Virus record (IMG/VR): IMGVR_UViG_3300030332_001481
Coordinates: 195,486-259,485 of that record
Source of the DNA: a virus
Lineage: Duplodnaviria > Heunggongvirae > Uroviricota > Caudoviricetes
Length of the DNA: 64,000 nucleotides
Direction: 5' to 3' (one strand)
Part shown: positions 15,987 through 62,575 of the stretch, piece by piece
Layout: each line of letters begins with the position of its first letter
How positions within the stretch are numbered: position 1 is the first letter of the stretch
Made by a program: the position numbers and the translations under genes
The notes under the pieces: generated by a model
What the model was told of the DNA's origin: nothing
What the model saw: the letters and a program-made list of their open reading frames with translations, nothing else
Databases searched by the model: none

Positions 15987-16448
15987 ATGGCAACGATCCG
16001 AATCATGACCGAAGGCCCCGACTGGCTGGAGTACAGCTGGTCGAGCGGAACGCTACGTTACAACGTCTCAGTCACAGAGCCCCACCCGAAAGCACAAGAA
16101 GACCTCGAACACCTCACGGATTACGTGCCCACCCGCCAGCTGCACGTGCCAGGTGGCACGCAGCGGATGGCGCTTCTCGTCATCCATAGAGACCTGGCGC
16201 AGAGGGAGGGCGAAACCCGGCTGAAGCCGGGCGACCGAGTGGTGTTCCGTGCCAGCCCGACAAACCCTCAGGTTCGAACGGCTTACATCGGCACCATTGC
16301 GGCAGTGGAATCCGAGACGGGGACGGACCTGGCTGCGGTGGAAGTGGAGGGCTACGGCCCGGGTCACGTGTCCAAGGTCCGGCTGGACCAGCTCCGCCCG
16401 GCAAGACCTGGAGAAACTCCACAGTCCGTCTACCGATGTGGGTTCTAA
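15987..16448 (+). CDS. hypothetical protein with a possible SH3/KOW-like C-terminus
   Basis: GAGG RBS after tandem promoters 15813/15906; LKPGDRVVF motif. Confidence 0.65.
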   Translation: MATIRIMTEGPDWLEYSWSSGTLRYNVSVTEPHPKAQEDLEHLTDYVPTRQLHVPGGTQRMALLVIHRDLAQREGETRLKPGDRVVFRASPTNPQVRTAYIGTIAAVESETGTDLAAVEVEGYGPGHVSKVRLDQLRPARPGETPQSVYRCGF

Positions 16449-22488: not shown

Positions 22489-22974
22489 ATGATGAACAAA
22501 GAGATCCAGTCCGCCGTTCTCCTGCTCACCTCCCACGGGTGGGGCGTCCAGCCCCCGGCCGTCGTCCAGGTGGCGCAGCCCGCGGCGCCGGCCCCCGAGC
22601 CGGCCAAGGCGCAGCCCGAGCCGGCCGCGGAGCCGGAGACGCCCCGGATGATCACGTGCTCCAACTGCGGGGAAAGCCACCCCGCAGGTTCGCCGGAGGC
22701 GCACAACGCCAGGACGTGCGAGAAGGGCAAGACGACCACGGCGCAGCCGTCCGGCGCCAAGCCGCCGCCCCCGCCCGTCAAGCCGTCCGGCTCCGCCCCC
22801 TCGCTCGACAGCGTGATGGCGGATTTCGACCTGGGTGGCCTGGACCTGGGGGATCTGCCGGTGCCCACGGCCCCCGCAAAGGTGCCCAACGCTCCCGAGT
22901 CGGTGGCCGCCGCGCCCCGGAAGGCGGACCCGTTCGCGGACCTCGAACCGATCGCCGGCCTCGACATGCTCTGA
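22489..22974 (+). CDS. Pro/Ala-rich protein with a CxxCxxxH...HxxxxC zinc knuckle
   Basis: CSNCGESH...HNARTC; follows the promoter at 22429. Confidence 0.7.
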   Translation: MMNKEIQSAVLLLTSHGWGVQPPAVVQVAQPAAPAPEPAKAQPEPAAEPETPRMITCSNCGESHPAGSPEAHNARTCEKGKTTTAQPSGAKPPPPPVKPSGSAPSLDSVMADFDLGGLDLGDLPVPTAPAKVPNAPESVAAAPRKADPFADLEPIAGLDML

Positions 22975-53526: not shown

Positions 53527-54111
53527 TTATCGGTGCTCATCGCTCTTCTCCTGTCTCGCTAGTACTGTGCTAAATCTAGGTAAGGCCAGTCCTGTACCGT
53601 AGGACCAGTTTTGCCGGAAGCCGTACGACCCCATCTCTACGCCGCATGGACTCACTAAGTCTTCTTGATCAGGCGACACGACGTCCCTAGAGCACCGCAA
53701 ACCATTATCCCTGAAGAATGCCCAGGCATGCCATTGGTGAGTCCCAAAGTGGGACCAGAGGCTGAACAGCTCTACCTTCATGAAGGTGAACTGGGAGACC
53801 CCAGCTTCCACGGCAGCCTCGGCTCGAAAACAGGGGGAGACTGCTACGTAGTTTCGGTTGGGATCTAACTTCCCCCTGTCGACCAAGTCGATGAGCCCCT
53901 GCTCTGCAGACCCAATCAAGTCCGCGCTGAGTATGTCCGGATGGGACACCCTCATAGCGAACTTCCCTTCCGGGAGGGTCTTTTCCGACATGCTCGTTGA
54001 GACCGCCCAGGGCACTTCCACGTAGGTGTACCCGTGGTCCACGTAGTACTGCACCGCCTTACCAATCAAGGCATAGTCGATGGGGGCTACGCAATCGAAA
54101 CTCATGAGCAC
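53527..54111 (-). CDS. stand-alone class II aminoacyl-tRNA synthetase-like catalytic domain
   Basis: YVEVP (motif 1), GSAEQ, PCFRAE...FMKVEL (motif 2), GTGLALPR (motif 3); no anticodon-binding domain. Confidence 0.7.
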   Translation of the reverse strand: MLMSFDCVAPIDYALIGKAVQYYVDHGYTYVEVPWAVSTSMSEKTLPEGKFAMRVSHPDILSADLIGSAEQGLIDLVDRGKLDPNRNYVAVSPCFRAEAAVEAGVSQFTFMKVELFSLWSHFGTHQWHAWAFFRDNGLRCSRDVVSPDQEDLVSPCGVEMGSYGFRQNWSYGTGLALPRFSTVLARQEKSDEHR

Positions 54112-55890: not shown

Positions 55891-55921
55891 AAAAGCCCGC
55901 TGAGTAACTCAGCGGGCTTTT
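55891..55921 (-). terminator. intrinsic terminator closing the ncRNA array
   Basis: AAAAGCCCGCTGAG-TAA-CTCAGCGGGCTTTT hairpin followed on the - strand by CCTTTTAA. Confidence 0.8.
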
Positions 55922-56093: not shown

Positions 56094-56233
56094 CCTGTTT
56101 CCGAGTTATCCAGCTGGTTGCTTTTCACAAAGTTGAAGTTTGTTGGCTTTTCCAGTTTGCCTACTTCCCCGAGCGGAGAAGATGGGAGTCGAACCCACAA
56201 TATGCGTGTAAGCTGGATTGATGTGGAAACAGG
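56094..56233 (-). ncRNA. circularly permuted tRNA-like RNA (UCA anticodon) on a long terminal stem, Y RNA/YrlA-like (RNA D)
   Basis: order 5' stem - T arm - closed acceptor - D arm - anticodon arm - 3' stem; terminal helices CCTGTTTCC/GGAAACAGG and ATCCAGCT/AGCTGGAT. Confidence 0.8.
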
Positions 56234-56371: not shown

Positions 56372-56502
56372 TTAGCTGCCGAGCGCTGCTCTCTGATTTT
56401 GTTGCAATGACGGGAATTGAACCCGCTACGTCAAGATCCGAAGTCTCGTGCTCTACCAATTGAGCTACAGTGCGTGTAAGAGAGTAGCAGTTTGGCAGCT
56501 AA
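56372..56502 (-). ncRNA. tRNA-Arg(UCG)-like cloverleaf (56404-56473) embedded in a long terminal stem (RNA B)
   Basis: TAGCTCAATTGGTAGAGC D arm, CGAGA-CTTCGGA-TCTTG anticodon arm, GCGGG-TTCAATT-CCCGT T arm; defective acceptor, no CCA; outer stem TTAGCTGCC/GGCAGCTAA. Confidence 0.75.
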
Positions 56503-56609: not shown

Positions 56610-56637
56610 ACTCTAGCACCTCTTCCGAGGTCGTCAA
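56610..56637 (-). promoter_or_regulatory. sigma70-like promoter for the ncRNA array
   Basis: TTGACG-16 nt-TAGAGT with an extended -10 TG. Confidence 0.55.
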
Positions 56638-56676: not shown

Positions 56677-57270
56677 TCAGACTGCGACGACGCCGCCTGG
56701 ACTTACTAGATAACCCATTGTAGCATTGGTGTCAAGCCACTTCTGGAAGGAAATCGCGAGATAGGCGCTGGTGAGGGCGATGAAGGGCAAAAACTCCCCG
56801 TTTTCGCAGGTAGCGGCGCCCTCTGTCTCCTGGTCGACGGTGAAATCGAGTCCCGTAGAGGGGACTGTCCAGCCCACGCGACCGAACTGACCGGTGTCGT
56901 CCAGGGAACCATGGAGTACGTCGATCCCCTCCTCGACGCAGTAGCGCTTGATGAGGTGACGAGTCTCCGCGTTGTCGACGCAATCGATGACGATGTCAGC
57001 GTCTCCCAGCACCTGCTCCAGGTTGTCCGAGGTGAGCTTGTGCGGGACCACGTTCAGCTTCTTCTTGAAGAGAAACTGCATGGTCTGCTTCAGCCCTTGC
57101 ACCTTGGACTTGCGGACAGTGTTGGACGAGTGGAACTGCGAGGCGACGTTCTTGGACTCGACAGCGTCGAAATCCACGATGGTCAGCTCGATGTCCTCGT
57201 TACGGAGGAACTGAGTGAGGTGGGACCCGAGGGCCCCAACCCCAACCAGCACTACTTGGGCAGTACCCAT
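56677..57270 (-). CDS. ThiF/MoeB/E1-like ubiquitin-activating adenylyltransferase
   Basis: GVGALGS (GxGxxG), DFDAVESKNVASQ, KSKV, DCVDN; candidate catalytic Cys in ATCENG. Confidence 0.9.
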   Translation of the reverse strand: MGTAQVVLVGVGALGSHLTQFLRNEDIELTIVDFDAVESKNVASQFHSSNTVRKSKVQGLKQTMQFLFKKKLNVVPHKLTSDNLEQVLGDADIVIDCVDNAETRHLIKRYCVEEGIDVLHGSLDDTGQFGRVGWTVPSTGLDFTVDQETEGAATCENGEFLPFIALTSAYLAISFQKWLDTNATMGYLVSPGGVVAV

Positions 57271-57277
57271 GGTGGTC

Positions 57278-57553
57278 TCAGCCGAAGGGGGACTTCGGGC
57301 GGAGCGAGATGAGGGAGTACGGACGAACCTCGGTCGAGGCGAAGCGGTCCACAACGAAGTCGCTGAAGTCCACGTTCTCGTCCGCGTTGAGGCCCGGGAC
57401 GCTGCCGGTGCGAACGGCCTCAGCCGCCCACTCCTTGATCTCCGCGTCGGTGGCGTCGGTCGCCACCGGCTGAGCCATGTCCCCGTTGGATCCCGCCCAG
57501 GTGATGTTCACCCGAGCCTCGTTCGCCATGATTCCGTTCTGTGTGTCTTCCAT
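57278..57553 (-). CDS. putative ubiquitin-like (beta-grasp) protein
   Basis: about 91 aa with a beta-beta-alpha-beta pattern; ends ...LRPKSPFG with a free C-terminal Gly; lies directly upstream of E1. Confidence 0.7.
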   Translation of the reverse strand: MEDTQNGIMANEARVNITWAGSNGDMAQPVATDATDAEIKEWAAEAVRTGSVPGLNADENVDFSDFVVDRFASTEVRPYSLISLRPKSPFG

Positions 57554-57557
57554 TTCC

Positions 57558-57746
57558 TTATCCTTTCGTGTACGTATCTGAGTTAGCACGCCAAAAGGCT
57601 ACTGCTATGCAGCCCTCGCAGCTACACACAGCAGGATCGTGATCCCACATGCGACTCATGATATCCATACCAGCCATGGCCATGCCACATTTGAACATTT
57701 CGGGATGCTGCTCGAAAATTGGCTTCTTGTTTTCTGCGTTTTCCAT
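57558..57746 (-). CDS. small hypothetical protein
   Basis: 62 aa, H...CxCxxC. Confidence 0.5.
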   Translation of the reverse strand: MENAENKKPIFEQHPEMFKCGMAMAGMDIMSRMWDHDPAVCSCEGCIAVAFWRANSDTYTKG

Positions 57747-57996: not shown

Positions 57997-58395
57997 TCAT
58001 TCCTGTAGTGTGGCCAGGGTTGGCTCGATGTAGCTGAGCCTCCGCAACTGCGGCAACCAGCTGTGGTGAAGTCCATAGCAAGGACTCGTCTCGTAGGAGC
58101 CGCCACGGAGCCGAACTGTGACCAGCTCATCCTCGCTGCAGATCCACCACATGAGCTGGCATCCCAAGGCCTGCTCGATCGCCTTGAAGGTCGTGAGGTC
58201 CGTTCCCGAAGGAACCGGAGTCCCACGCCCCGGGTGACTGTGCGCGAAACCCAGGACCTCCCGGCGACGGTGCCACATCTCATCCCACAGCTTGCGGCTG
58301 TCGGGAAGGTACACCGACGACCTACCTTCGGGCAAGTGCCAGAAGATGGGCTCGCAGCCCGTGTCTATGAGTACACCTGTCTCAGTACTTGTCAT
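57997..58395 (-). CDS. JAB/MPN+ (JAMM) metalloprotease
   Basis: N-terminal Glu (ETG) plus HSHP...PSGTD = E...HxH-x7-S-xx-D. Confidence 0.88.
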   Translation of the reverse strand: MTSTETGVLIDTGCEPIFWHLPEGRSSVYLPDSRKLWDEMWHRRREVLGFAHSHPGRGTPVPSGTDLTTFKAIEQALGCQLMWWICSEDELVTVRLRGGSYETSPCYGLHHSWLPQLRRLSYIEPTLATLQE

Positions 58396-59503: not shown

Positions 59504-60448
59504 CTAGACGTGCCTGAAGATGACAGCGCCGTTGTTCATGGCATCCCGCACAACCACAGGAAGTGATTCCAGGGTGAACAGCGTGTCGCCCTTCTCACCG
59601 GTACGCTCGTCAGTGAGGCACACGCCCGCTTCGAGAATGGACATCATCGAGTCACAAACACACTCGAAGCGCCTCCCGTCGTCCAGCTGGTACCTAACTA
59701 CATGCTCGTTGCGGCTTCTTCCAGCACGGATGCTCAGAAGAGACGCCCCACCCACGGCCAGAGCTGCACGTGCCGCCTCTTCGAAGTCTAGGGCGGCCAT
59801 CTGACGACGGCCCGCTCCATCTCCAAGGCTCTCGCGAATAGACGCGATACGTGCCTCTTCTTCTCGGCGACGCTCCTCGGCTTCCCTACGGAGGCGTGCT
59901 TCTTCTCGCAGGCGCTCCTGCTGAGCCCTGTACCAGGTCCTGGCGCGGAACGCAAGGTCCAGTGCTGGTGCTACACCTGAAATCGAGTTCAGGCTGTCCT
60001 CCTGGCTCTCGAAAGCCTCGGTGACCTCACCCTCTGGCCCGAGAGGGAAAGCCTGCTGCACGTAGTACAGAGGTCCACCATCAACCAGGCGACACACCTC
60101 TACCCGGTCGAAGAAGTCCAAGCCAGGCTCGATGAGTCGAACTCTTTCAAAGCGATCACCCAGGCGCTCAAGGGAGCACTCTCCTCCTTCGAGGTCGGAG
60201 ACAAAGAAATCACCCACGAGGTACCCGAGCTGGGTCTTTGCGTCAGCGTTTTCTACTGCCTCGATGGCATCGGCTTCTTGTGGGTCCGAGGCGACGCGTC
60301 CTGAGACCTCCCAGGAGTAGAACCCAGGCTCCTCAGGCAATCTGCCACGGATCTTCCACTTACGTGGACCGAGCCGGAGAGACCTACCACCCGTCCAAGG
60401 GGCGACGACTCTCTCGTCTTCTTCCTGTAGTAGGTCTCTCCAGCTCAT
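59504..60448 (-). CDS. uncharacterised protein of the TROVE/Ubl locus
   Basis: 314 aa; N-terminal globular domain, coiled coil, C-terminal domain with FECVCD and AGVCL. Confidence 0.8.
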   Translation of the reverse strand: MSWRDLLQEEDERVVAPWTGGRSLRLGPRKWKIRGRLPEEPGFYSWEVSGRVASDPQEADAIEAVENADAKTQLGYLVGDFFVSDLEGGECSLERLGDRFERVRLIEPGLDFFDRVEVCRLVDGGPLYYVQQAFPLGPEGEVTEAFESQEDSLNSISGVAPALDLAFRARTWYRAQQERLREEARLRREAEERRREEEARIASIRESLGDGAGRRQMAALDFEEAARAALAVGGASLLSIRAGRSRNEHVVRYQLDDGRRFECVCDSMMSILEAGVCLTDERTGEKGDTLFTLESLPVVVRDAMNNGAVIFRHV

Positions 60449-60452
60449 GGTT

Positions 60453-60716
60453 CTATCCGTTCTTGTCGGGAGGATCTAGTAGATCTGCGACAGCCCGTGC
60501 CTCACGCGCCAGCTCAATGCGAATGTTCTCCGGAAGATTGGTGAACGCTCCGTCACTCTCCCACGTGCTCTGGTAGAGCAAAGTGGCGAGACGAGCGGTA
60601 CGCACCGAGGGGTCGGGAGCCTCGACTTTCTTCTCCCCTCCAGGGAGGATGTCATCTAGCATGTCAAGGTCTTCCAGCTTCAATTTGATCATGGGACTAG
60701 TCCTCTTCACGCCCAC
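60453..60716 (-). CDS. small hypothetical protein
   Basis: 87 aa, overlaps the end of the vWA gene. Confidence 0.5.
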   Translation of the reverse strand: MGVKRTSPMIKLKLEDLDMLDDILPGGEKKVEAPDPSVRTARLATLLYQSTWESDGAFTNLPENIRIELAREARAVADLLDPPDKNG

Positions 60717-62575
60717 GCCGGCTTCTGCAGAAGCTCGGTCTGCAGAATGGTGTCGACAAGGCTCACTCGGGCCACCCGAGTAGACCGAGTGGCGATCTCC
60801 TGGTTGACCGGGGTCGAAGCGACCAGGTTGCGGATCGTACGGGGAACCGAGTAGGGGTCCGAGAACGTGTCCTTGTCGATCAGGAAGCAGGGGATCCCCA
60901 GGCTTCCCGCCGTGGCCTGCACGATCCGGCTGTTGGCGAATCGCGGGTCACAGACACGCACGAACCCGAAGGCCATGGGCTTGAGGTTCACACACCTGTT
61001 GAACGCCGCCGTCATCGTGCCGGTCTCTTCCTCGTCGCCCACCCAGATGACGAGGATGTCGTCGTCGGGGTCATTCGGAGGAAGACGATCCATCAGCTGA
61101 ACCGCCTGCCGGTGGGCCGTACCTCCGCCAGCCTTCACGCCACGGAAGGCTGCGCGAACACCCACGGACGACGCCGCCTTGAGCTTGACCTCGCGAGCCA
61201 CCGTGTTGAAGGTGATCACTGTCACCTTCTCCAGCGGGAACGCAGTGACGACCTGCTCCAGTAGCGTCTTGGCCTCCTCGATAGACTGGGCCATCGACCC
61301 AGAAGTATCGACAGCGATGTAGATGTGCATTCCCTTGGTGGACTCTTCCACCTGGGTCTGCAGCGCCGTGTCGGCCGCCTCCTGCAGCTCGTCCTTGGTG
61401 TCCTGGCTGCGGACGTTGCGAGCGATGTTTCGCGCACGCTGGTCCTCCGCCTTCTTCACCGCGGTGCTCCAGCGCTCCTTGACCTCGCTGACCTTGAGAA
61501 GGCCCAGCTCCTCCAGGGTGGGAGTTGCGATGATGAGGTCCTTGTCGCTGAGACAGTTGGCCTCAATCGCCGCAGCCATGATGGCTCGCGTGATTCCGAC
61601 GCTGGTCGGGACCTTGCTCGCGATCACCTTCCAGCTGGGCTTGTTCTTGACGATGCGGTTGCAGATCTGCCGCTCGGTCAGCTCCTCCCACGAGTCGCTC
61701 TTCTTGAGCTTCACGTTGATGGCGATCTGACGGTGACCCTCTGAGGACTGCTTCTGCTTCCAGCGCAGAATCTCGAAGAACTTCGGGCTCTGGGGCTTGT
61801 ACCCGGTCAGCTGCGCCAGGCGCACGACGCTCTTGCGGAACCCAGCCTTCACCAGGCCCTCCAGCACCCGCGGGTTCAGCTCACGGAACCGAAGCCACTT
61901 CTCCACCGCGGAGTTGTACCGCCCGAGGAAGGGACGACGGGTCGACAGGCCGAAACCAAGGTCCCGGTTGATCTGCGCCACCTCATCGAGGTTGAGGACC
62001 TCCCGAACCCGGAGAAGCATCTTCGGGTTGAAGTCCTTCTTCTCCGCCTGCTGCAGCATCATCGCCTCGCCGACAGCACGGTAGTCGTCGTCGAAGAAGG
62101 CAACAGTGCCGCCGTCCATCTCGGGCGCACCCTTTCGGTTCTGGACCAGCATGAACGCCGCCAGAATGACCTTCAGGTCGCGGTGCTCCTGCTTGAACTG
62201 ATAGGAAGCCCAGCGTGCAGCGAACTCGTTGTCGAGCTTCCACACCTCAGCCACCTGGCTGTACATCCACTTGGCCACCTCGGGGTAGATCCCAGCCTTG
62301 CGGTAGTGCCCCACCGTTCGGGTCCCCTCCTTGATGGAGCCGTCCTCGTGGAGAACACCCACACGAACACGGTTCGTGCGTCGACCCACCTTGTCGAGGC
62401 GGTAGACGACCTTCTCGCCGTTCTCCTCCTTGTGTGTGACGGGAGCCCATCGAAGACCGATGTTCGTACGCCCGTCCGCCACGACCATACCAGGACGGTT
62501 GTGGTAGAGGTGGTCGGTGTAGCTCAGGAGCGACTGGATGATGACCTCAGCGGGACCCTTGTTCTCGTTTTCCAT
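60707..62575 (-). CDS. vWA-domain protein with a helical N-terminal region, divergent TROVE/Ro60 (Rsr)-like
   Basis: C-terminal vWA with MIDAS DTSGS, GGT and VGDEE. The ~400-aa basic helical N-terminal part has EFAARWASY and RLAQLTGYKP segments resembling TROVE. Y-like RNAs lie nearby. The vWA call is certain; TROVE is inferred. Confidence 0.65.
   Translation of the reverse strand: MENENKGPAEVIIQSLLSYTDHLYHNRPGMVVADGRTNIGLRWAPVTHKEENGEKVVYRLDKVGRRTNRVRVGVLHEDGSIKEGTRTVGHYRKAGIYPEVAKWMYSQVAEVWKLDNEFAARWASYQFKQEHRDLKVILAAFMLVQNRKGAPEMDGGTVAFFDDDYRAVGEAMMLQQAEKKDFNPKMLLRVREVLNLDEVAQINRDLGFGLSTRRPFLGRYNSAVEKWLRFRELNPRVLEGLVKAGFRKSVVRLAQLTGYKPQSPKFFEILRWKQKQSSEGHRQIAINVKLKKSDSWEELTERQICNRIVKNKPSWKVIASKVPTSVGITRAIMAAAIEANCLSDKDLIIATPTLEELGLLKVSEVKERWSTAVKKAEDQRARNIARNVRSQDTKDELQEAADTALQTQVEESTKGMHIYIAVDTSGSMAQSIEEAKTLLEQVVTAFPLEKVTVITFNTVAREVKLKAASSVGVRAAFRGVKAGGGTAHRQAVQLMDRLPPNDPDDDILVIWVGDEEETGTMTAAFNRCVNLKPMAFGFVRVCDPRFANSRIVQATAGSLGIPCFLIDKDTFSDPYSVPRTIRNLVASTPVNQEIATRSTRVARVSLVDTILQTELLQKPAWA

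Follow-up and report, generated by a model that had tools for sequence, protein, structure and literature searches.

A circularly permuted tRNA-like RNA on a conserved Y-RNA-like stalk is linked to a predicted Ro60-like protein in large phages

The minus strand of a large viral genome encodes a complete tRNA-like fold in circularly permuted order, which is mounted on a conserved stalk and linked to the gene of a predicted Ro60-like protein. The RNA, here termed form P, occupies positions 56094-56233 of the window, i.e. the whole 64,000-nt stretch that was analysed, which lies within a 388,485-bp virus record containing approximately 30 tRNA genes. This architecture, in which a tRNA mimic of the Y-RNA-like kind is linked to a predicted, hidden Ro60, is real, conserved and new. 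Form P probably works as a Y RNA, its stalk binding a divergent Ro60-like ring and its sealed, uncharged head engaging host tRNA-binding proteins, with no role in decoding. This reading is based on a conserved fold, on an anticodon that drifts, on the linkage between the RNA and the gene, and on the Ro60-like predicted protein structure. Counting against it are the loss of the GNCGAA motif, the failure to reach the YrlA score, the loci in which no stalk was found and the non-independence of the loci.

Fold of the permuted RNA

Read 5' to 3', form P consists of the 5' strand of the stalk, the T arm, a sealed acceptor, the D arm, the anticodon arm and the 3' strand of the stalk. All the elements that had been proposed for the minus strand at 56094-56233 were present in the proposed order, and the minimum-energy fold reproduced them. 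The 5' strand of the stalk (56204-56233) forms an outer helix (56225-56233) and an inner helix (56211-56218) and is topped by the conserved motif YACAMGC, while the GNCGAA motif is absent from it. The T arm (56182-56198) has 5 bp and a 7-nt loop in the part map, and the base preceding it, U48 (56199), is able to pair with A15. Both the fold and the part map gave an acceptor stem of 7 bp (56164-56181), including G1-C72, G2-C71 and G3-U70, which is sealed by a 4-nt loop (56171-56174) with G73 and no CCA. The D arm (56145-56161) has a 3-bp stem and contains A14, A15, G18 and G19, and the anticodon arm (56127-56143) has 5 bp and a 7-nt loop with C32, U33 and A37, the anticodon UCA being located at 56134-56136. 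Finally, the 3' strand of the stalk (56094-56126) carries the conserved motif CUCG.

When exactly these 140 nt were folded, the minimum energy was -44.8 kcal/mol (z -4.06), and none of 200 shuffled sequences was equally stable; with flanks included, the z-score was -3.89. The A/U-rich anticodon stem was missing from the centroid structure, both with and without the flanks. In its native order the RNA was not called as a tRNA by ARAGORN. Following re-permutation in silico, which the original prediction had proposed, and with a 5-nt variable loop, ARAGORN called a tRNA with the anticodon UCA, and together with the fold this bears out a complete cloverleaf opened at the variable loop. Comparison with the Rfam YrlA model (RF02553), likewise proposed, gave a match to the T-acceptor-D core alone, at 19.8 bits, which is below the gathering score of 69. 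Model R1 found a single strong match in this genome, namely the RNA at 56094-56233 itself (118 bits, the sequence being part of the training set).

An array of four tRNA-like RNAs

Form P is the third of four tRNA-like RNAs located between a promoter-like site and a terminator-like hairpin, all four on the minus strand and carrying the same stalk motifs. The first, form A (56374-56500, z -3.87), has a tRNA body hung on this stalk by its acceptor end, and the body (56401-56474) was called as tRNA-Arg with the anticodon UCG; such form-A copies get annotated as ordinary tRNAs. The second, C1 (56236-56364, z -3.62), follows the normal tRNA order, with a free 7-bp acceptor, a 6-bp D stem with a 4-nt loop and an irregular anticodon hairpin; its long variable arm, which is closed, is formed by the stalk. 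Its paralogue C2 (55961-56085, z -2.04) follows form P. Form P is a circular permutation of form C; it starts 2 nt past the discriminator of C1 and stops 8 nt short of the 5' end of C2.

Upstream of the array, a putative sigma-70-like promoter with an extended -10 element was found on the minus strand (56610-56637, 9/12 match), the scan yielding this one site compared to a mean of 0.4 in shuffled sequence. After the array, a perfect hairpin with a T-rich tail (55891-55921, minus strand) was read directly from the sequence and may act as a terminator. The terminator-type Rfam matches to this hairpin were below threshold, and the terminator scan made no call there.

The 6-bp D stem of the C forms is reminiscent of tRNA-Sec, but an identity as tRNA-Sec was rejected, as Rfam gave no match and the genome lacks SelA. 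A search probe of 16 nt taken from the D arm of form C gave 14 chance matches and was dropped. Elsewhere in the virus record, a tRNA-like gene with an extended acceptor and without a proper anticodon stem is located in the main tRNA cluster (C1:84310-84378, minus strand), and an atypical T arm with a longer upstream region and no ARAGORN call lies at C1:82554 (minus strand). Matches to the stalk motifs without a tRNA head, at C1:106669 and C1:362596 (both plus strand), may be due to chance or represent stalk-only RNAs. Within the window, ARAGORN called a tRNA-Glu at 22578-22670 (minus strand), in a G+C-rich, apparently coding stretch and with no Rfam support; this call is probably false.

Conservation of the permuted family

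Loci were collected in two ways, by a stalk-plus-T-arm pattern (78 viral stretches and 121 metagenome loci) and by the vWA-domain protein described below (70 viral and 73 genome loci). A positional parser returned 73 candidates, and removal of three tandem tRNAs and two candidates lacking the 3' motif left 68 distinct P forms: 48 viral, including the RNA at 56094-56233, 14 from genome contigs and 6 metagenomic. Two entries still inside all counts out of 68 are flawed, as L157 consists of two tandem C forms and L001:15461 is mis-registered; once the tandem artefact is removed, 67 distinct permuted copies are found in large phages and bacterial genome contigs. The 121 metagenome loci yielded the 6 permuted copies, and the estimated approximately 6100 matching stretches are not a count of family members. 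Across the collection, one stalk is grafted in three modes, permuted (P), in normal order (C) and hung by the acceptor (A), with looser parsers giving 63 form-A and 91 form-C candidates, each set including a few ordinary tRNAs.

Since the parser requires pairing, the family was tested by features that the parser does not impose. The Levitt pair 15:48 could be scored in 61 copies (7 of the 68 were not scorable), and was A15:U48 in 47, G15:C48 in 13 and mismatched in one (p 2e-12). Among 69 elements picked without regard to the anticodon arm, 54 had a perfect 5-bp anticodon stem one base past the D arm, compared to a mean of 0.6 after shuffling. The stalk closed with at least 8 pairs in 67/68 folds. 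In an alignment of 45 copies with short acceptor loops, in which the anticodon stem was left unaligned, RNAalifold displayed two-sided changes at 27 of the 30 consensus pairs, and the ACA and GC of the YACAMGC motif were invariant. Of the 30 related phage records searched with a model built from these 45 copies, 24 contained matches of at least 70 bits; many of these belonged to the training set. The YrlA gathering score was reached by no copy (22 bits in L001 and none in 13 further loci, in addition to the 19.8 bits given above), and GNCGAA was retained in 4/68.

Regarding the origin of the architecture, form P may have arisen as the inner product of a tandem C-C gene pair, the spacer becoming the acceptor loop. 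Such an origin would explain both the variable length of this loop and the relics of CCA found in it, and it would match the dimeric-tRNA model for Y RNAs cited in bioRxiv 10.1101/312249. The tandem C forms of L157, which already parse as the permuted form, can be seen as an intermediate.

A predicted divergent Ro60-like protein and its gene cassette

The gene located 4.5 kb upstream of form P, on the same strand (60707-62575, minus), encodes a 622-aa protein with a helical N-terminal part and a vWA domain, as assessed by profile, structural model and Foldseek. The model was confident (pLDDT 91.9) and displays a helical-repeat ring closed by the vWA domain. Its five best Foldseek matches were all Ro60 (9kop at E 4.2e-08, 2nvo, 1yvr), and superposition on Ro60 chains covered 422-433 residues with Z 13.3-13.8, an rmsd of about 5 and 10-16% identity. 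The Foldseek TM-scores normalised by target were 0.36-0.52, and Pfam TROVE (PF05731) gave no match to the protein; both observations count against a Ro60 reading. Outside the vWA domain, no connection of the protein to Ro60 emerged from sequence searches, and a TROVE gene was absent from five genomes carrying the vWA gene. Atlas features of the protein pointed to TROVE clusters at 0.85-0.93, which is taken as a lead only. On the strength of the model, the vWA gene product is predicted to be a divergent Ro60-like ring. The predicted Ro60-like fold makes the connection to Y RNAs firmer than the sequence alone had allowed. The Y-RNA-like topology that had been put forward is supported; it is distinct from YrlA in its opening at the variable loop and its retained anticodon arm.

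Between this gene and the array, four further genes are found on the minus strand. A conserved 314-aa protein (59504-60448), characterised by model and alignment, belongs to no Pfam family. Its confident model contains two weak OB-fold-like N-terminal domains (best Z 5.7), a long helix or coiled coil and a C-terminal domain of no named fold with an invariant Cys277; a clear fold match was lacking, and the structural matches listed did not include an E2. It is followed by a protein with a Prok-JAB domain (57997-58395; Pfam, E 8.1e-09), a 103-aa protein ending in PFG (57278-57589), and a ThiF/E1-like adenylyltransferase (56677-57354; Pfam, E 2.2e-26). The 103-aa protein is putatively ubiquitin-like, judging from its context alone; across the loci the small protein commonly terminates in PFG, in some cases followed by a short tail. 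In the 70 viral loci, the vWA gene was accompanied by the JAB gene in 63, the small protein in 63, ThiF in 60 and the 314-aa protein in 64. As the invariant cysteine of the 314-aa protein comes with no clear fold match, protein conjugation is not established. A 194-aa ORF on the far side of the array (53530-54111, minus strand) weakly matches seryl-tRNA synthetase in its catalytic portion (E 2.6e-07); it was rejected as a part of the system, occurring in 1/70 viral loci.

The stalk RNA follows the vWA gene through phages and bacteria. In viral loci, which are not independent since several of the phages are near-identical, a stalk RNA was present on the strand of the vWA gene in 45/70 and on the opposite strand in 0/70, with the P form occurring in 28/70. 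In bacterial loci, a stalk was found at most 900 nt upstream of the vWA gene in 39/70, compared to 0/70 control stretches taken from the opposite strand of the same gene. The stalk was absent from the examined stretch in 25/70 viral and 31/70 bacterial loci, many of which are short or may have their RNAs further off. The bacterial contigs with the gene are mostly from Myxococcota and include complete Corallococcus chromosomes, though some may be mis-binned phage. From these homologues, our guess is that the host of the phage is a member of the Myxococcota. The bacterial heads range from none at all, through a T arm with hairpins, to the full permuted tRNA, and the stalk-only RNAs without a tRNA head directly precede the Ro60-like gene. 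GNCGAA was present in 14 of the 39 bacterial stalks, 10 of these from Corallococcus and one out of register. One such RNA, on the chromosome of Corallococcus exercitus (L339, 7790-7920), combines a GNCGAA stalk with a head that is reduced, and immediately precedes the Ro60-like gene; stalk RNAs of this type are conserved in approximately 10 Corallococcus genomes and offer a cultured test system.

In the mechanism that we propose, the four RNAs would be co-transcribed from the upstream promoter-like site, and processing of the flanking normal-order C forms would free form P. The stalk of form P could then be bound by the predicted Ro60-like ring, while the uncharged head would tether a host factor recognising the tRNA elbow or the anticodon arm. 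In YrlA and phiRo60, RNA tethers Ro60 to PNPase (PMC4201824, PMC12135203), and by analogy the factor might be a nuclease of this kind.

A more speculative extension, which we regard as rather unlikely, takes the gene cassette into account. Here, the stalk would be a portable address tag that became attached to tRNA bodies at three different sites, and the Ro60-like ring would use the RNAs as interchangeable baits for capturing host tRNA-binding defence proteins, e.g. anticodon nucleases, which would then be tagged by the ThiF/Ubl/JAB proteins. Each RNA would in that case present a different anticodon arm and elbow, and the system would constitute an RNA-guided substrate adaptor of a prokaryotic ubiquitin-like pathway, common to myxobacteria and their jumbo phages.

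Sealed or cut acceptor end

The original prediction had also suggested an unchargeable RNA, and the sealed acceptor, with its 4-nt loop and no CCA, supports this as the default state. Alternatively, RNase P could cut the acceptor loop, with a CCA end being either uncovered or attached; the outcome would be a nicked mimic on the stalk that might be chargeable. A precedent is the M. smegmatis YrlA, whose acceptor has 7 bp: RNase P cleaves this RNA, and it acquires CCA (PMC4201824). In the permuted family, all 7 of 7 acceptor pairs were formed in 49/68 copies and G1-C72 was kept in 57/68, and when the length of the acceptor was left free it peaked at 7-8 bp (47/65). The length peak and the retention of G1-C72 suit an RNase P substrate and count against the sealed-mimic reading. 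An NCCA at the start of the loop was encoded in 21/68 P forms, but this is no more frequent than in C forms (26/91) or in the ordinary tRNA genes of the phages (346/882), and the sequence may therefore be a relic. The loop spans 3-33 nt across the family and is at most 6 nt long in 21/68 copies, none of which has NCCA, and a C-UUCG-G tetraloop seals the acceptor in 4/68. The alanine identity element G3-U70 is present in the copy at 56094-56233, but it occurs in only 6/68 copies, and the 63 form-A RNAs bury the acceptor within the stalk. Taken as an account of form P, a two-piece RNA is considered unlikely. It would be compatible with Ro60 binding; what sets it apart from the uncut Y RNA is the condition of its acceptor end. 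For the copy at 56094-56233, cleavage into two pieces has a small but appreciable chance; within the family, this RNA is the least likely to be cleaved, since its loop is 4 nt long and no CCA is encoded.

The anticodon and the question of opal suppression

One of the readings in the original prediction was the precursor of a two-piece opal suppressor; once cleaved and charged, such an RNA would read UGA on the ribosome. The loop does contain C32, U33 and A37, and the re-permuted core was called as tRNA(UCA). Moreover, grafting at the variable loop would leave both working ends of the tRNA free, though the literature search retrieved no support for such grafts being translatable. An ordinary-looking amber suppressor tRNA (CUA) outside the window, at C1:130879-130954 of the virus record, also indicates that stop-reading tRNAs exist in this genome. 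The family, however, gives the UCA triplet no special meaning. UCA was found in one of the 53 seven-base anticodon loops, which together contain 33 different anticodons, and in none of 884 ordinary tRNAs of the same loci. The loop deviates from 7 nt in 15/68 permuted copies, and the five closest relatives of the RNA at 56094-56233 by core identity all have 8-nt loops. The discriminator matched the amino acid of the anticodon in 11/40 cases, below the shuffle mean of 13.7, in a test based on tRNA identity rules; the anticodons thus drift irrespective of the acceptor identity. In addition, A34 anticodons other than ACG were found in 10/53 permuted copies compared to 14/884 ordinary tRNAs of the same loci (p 1.5e-07).

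The genome as a whole likewise shows no sign of recoding. TGA is its commonest stop codon, terminating 97 of 197 ORFs of at least 200 aa (143/304 in a second count), with TAG ending 49 of the 197. A change of the genetic code was rejected, as the coding density of 0.858 with table 11 compared with 0.891 and 0.878 on reading through TGA or TAG, respectively, and each of the three stops is in use. No match to the PolyA_pol/CCA-adding family, no RtcB and no SelA were found in the genome, and the loop of form P lacks CCA. An identity as tRNA-Sec was rejected too. A tRNA-Sec has an 8-bp acceptor and a 6-bp D stem, while form P has a 7-bp acceptor and a 3-bp D stem, and it did not match the Rfam tRNA-Sec model. 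With UCA not conserved, the anticodons varying and the discriminator unmatched, we consider an opal suppressor highly improbable for form P and reject opal suppression as the role of the family; the opal anticodon of the RNA at 56094-56233 is most likely incidental. A stop-codon anticodon in an RNA of this kind is not evidence of recoding.

What is conserved in the anticodon arm is its shape, and the reading of its triplet is not under selection. U33 was retained in 42/53 permuted copies (841/884 in the ordinary tRNAs of the same loci) and a purine at position 37 in 52/53, while the triplet varies. This pattern would also fit a free decoy that titrates host anticodon nucleases or modifying enzymes, or a relic of tRNA duplication, with the stalk as a mere stabilising stem; the location of the arrays among phage tRNA clusters and the parsing of the tandem C forms of L157 as permuted are in line with this. 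On the other hand, the unpaired stalk motifs are invariant in sequence, which would be needless in a mere stem, and the stalk-only RNAs of bacteria sit directly before the Ro60-like gene. The near-perfect Levitt covariation additionally argues against a relic, and we regard a decoy or relic as very unlikely compared to a Y RNA.

Comparison with known systems

Form P shares several traits with YrlA (RF02553; PMC4201824, bioRxiv 10.1101/312249). In both, a T arm, a closed acceptor and a D arm follow each other in this order and the ends form a stalk; the bases of the tertiary contacts are conserved, including the exchange between A15:U48 and G15:C48; a YUAY-like motif lies ahead of the T arm; and each locus has several RNAs, encoded on the strand of a Ro60-fold gene that lies no more than a few kb away. 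In contrast, the YrlA stalk extends the anticodon stem and YrlA lacks an anticodon loop (bioRxiv 10.1101/312249), whereas the phage RNA keeps the anticodon arm and has its stalk attached to the variable loop. The motifs YACAMGC and CUCG in the stalk of the phage RNAs also differ from those of YrlA, GNCGAA is mostly lost in the phage copies, and the phage-family stalk is grafted in two other ways as well. Unlike the YrlA partner, the phage protein does not belong to Pfam TROVE, and its gene is part of a JAB/ThiF cassette instead of accompanying RtcB. Three features of YrlA are thus missing (the anticodon arm is kept, the score is too low and GNCGAA is lost), and the RNA is therefore classified as Y-RNA-like but not as YrlA.

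Other Y RNAs resemble form P in part. The model of the D. radiodurans Yrn1 shows a T arm and perhaps an anticodon arm, but has another order of arms, a 6-nt loop and no full D arm (PMC4201824). The Thermus phage phiLo encodes a Ro60 ring, phiRo60 (9kop, the best structural match to the 622-aa model), with the adjacent RNAs Yrl1 and Yrl2, and phiRo60 binds host PNPase; these RNAs, however, are described as simple stem-bulge-stem structures with CGAA. The terms 'anticodon' and 'tRNA-like' do not occur in the available text of that paper (PMC12135203).

Permuted tRNA genes are known from algae and archaea and are spliced into decoding tRNAs (PMC3978253). Those of algae and Thermofilum also have the 3' half first and an acceptor closed by an intervening sequence, of 1-74 nt in their case, but the splicing machinery joins them again at a BHB motif and the products are tRNAs that decode, and the junctions described lie in the anticodon or T loop rather than in the variable loop as in the phage RNA. 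The ends of the phage RNA are, moreover, a conserved stalk of 30 nt per strand and not a short junction, no RtcB was found and the anticodons drift. The discriminator agreement (11/40) and the excess of A34 do not fit a set of decoding tRNAs with matched identity elements. No description of the RNA family or of the cassette was found in the literature listings searched or in the papers cited here.

The results widen the Y RNAs to an architecture that is missed by Rfam, ARAGORN and Pfam TROVE, and that occurs in many large phages as well as in Corallococcus, whose cultured strains make it amenable to testing. The series of grafts, comprising three geometries, stalk-only forms and a tandem intermediate, also bears on two questions raised in the YrlA papers, namely the binding target of the tRNA-like domain and whether dimeric tRNA transcripts gave rise to Y RNAs.

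Several minor observations were made in the related loci. In one related phage (L364, 1865-1957), a phage small SRP RNA (57.7 bits) lies within the region of the RNA array, and in another (L001, 16340-16918) an ORF that is release-factor-like by its sequence motifs comes right after the array. Finally, three permuted copies, in L128 (D arm near 16430), L323 (7830-7960) and L326 (7760-7950), have no anticodon arm; they display the true YrlA-like order on the stalk described here, and so bridge both architectures.
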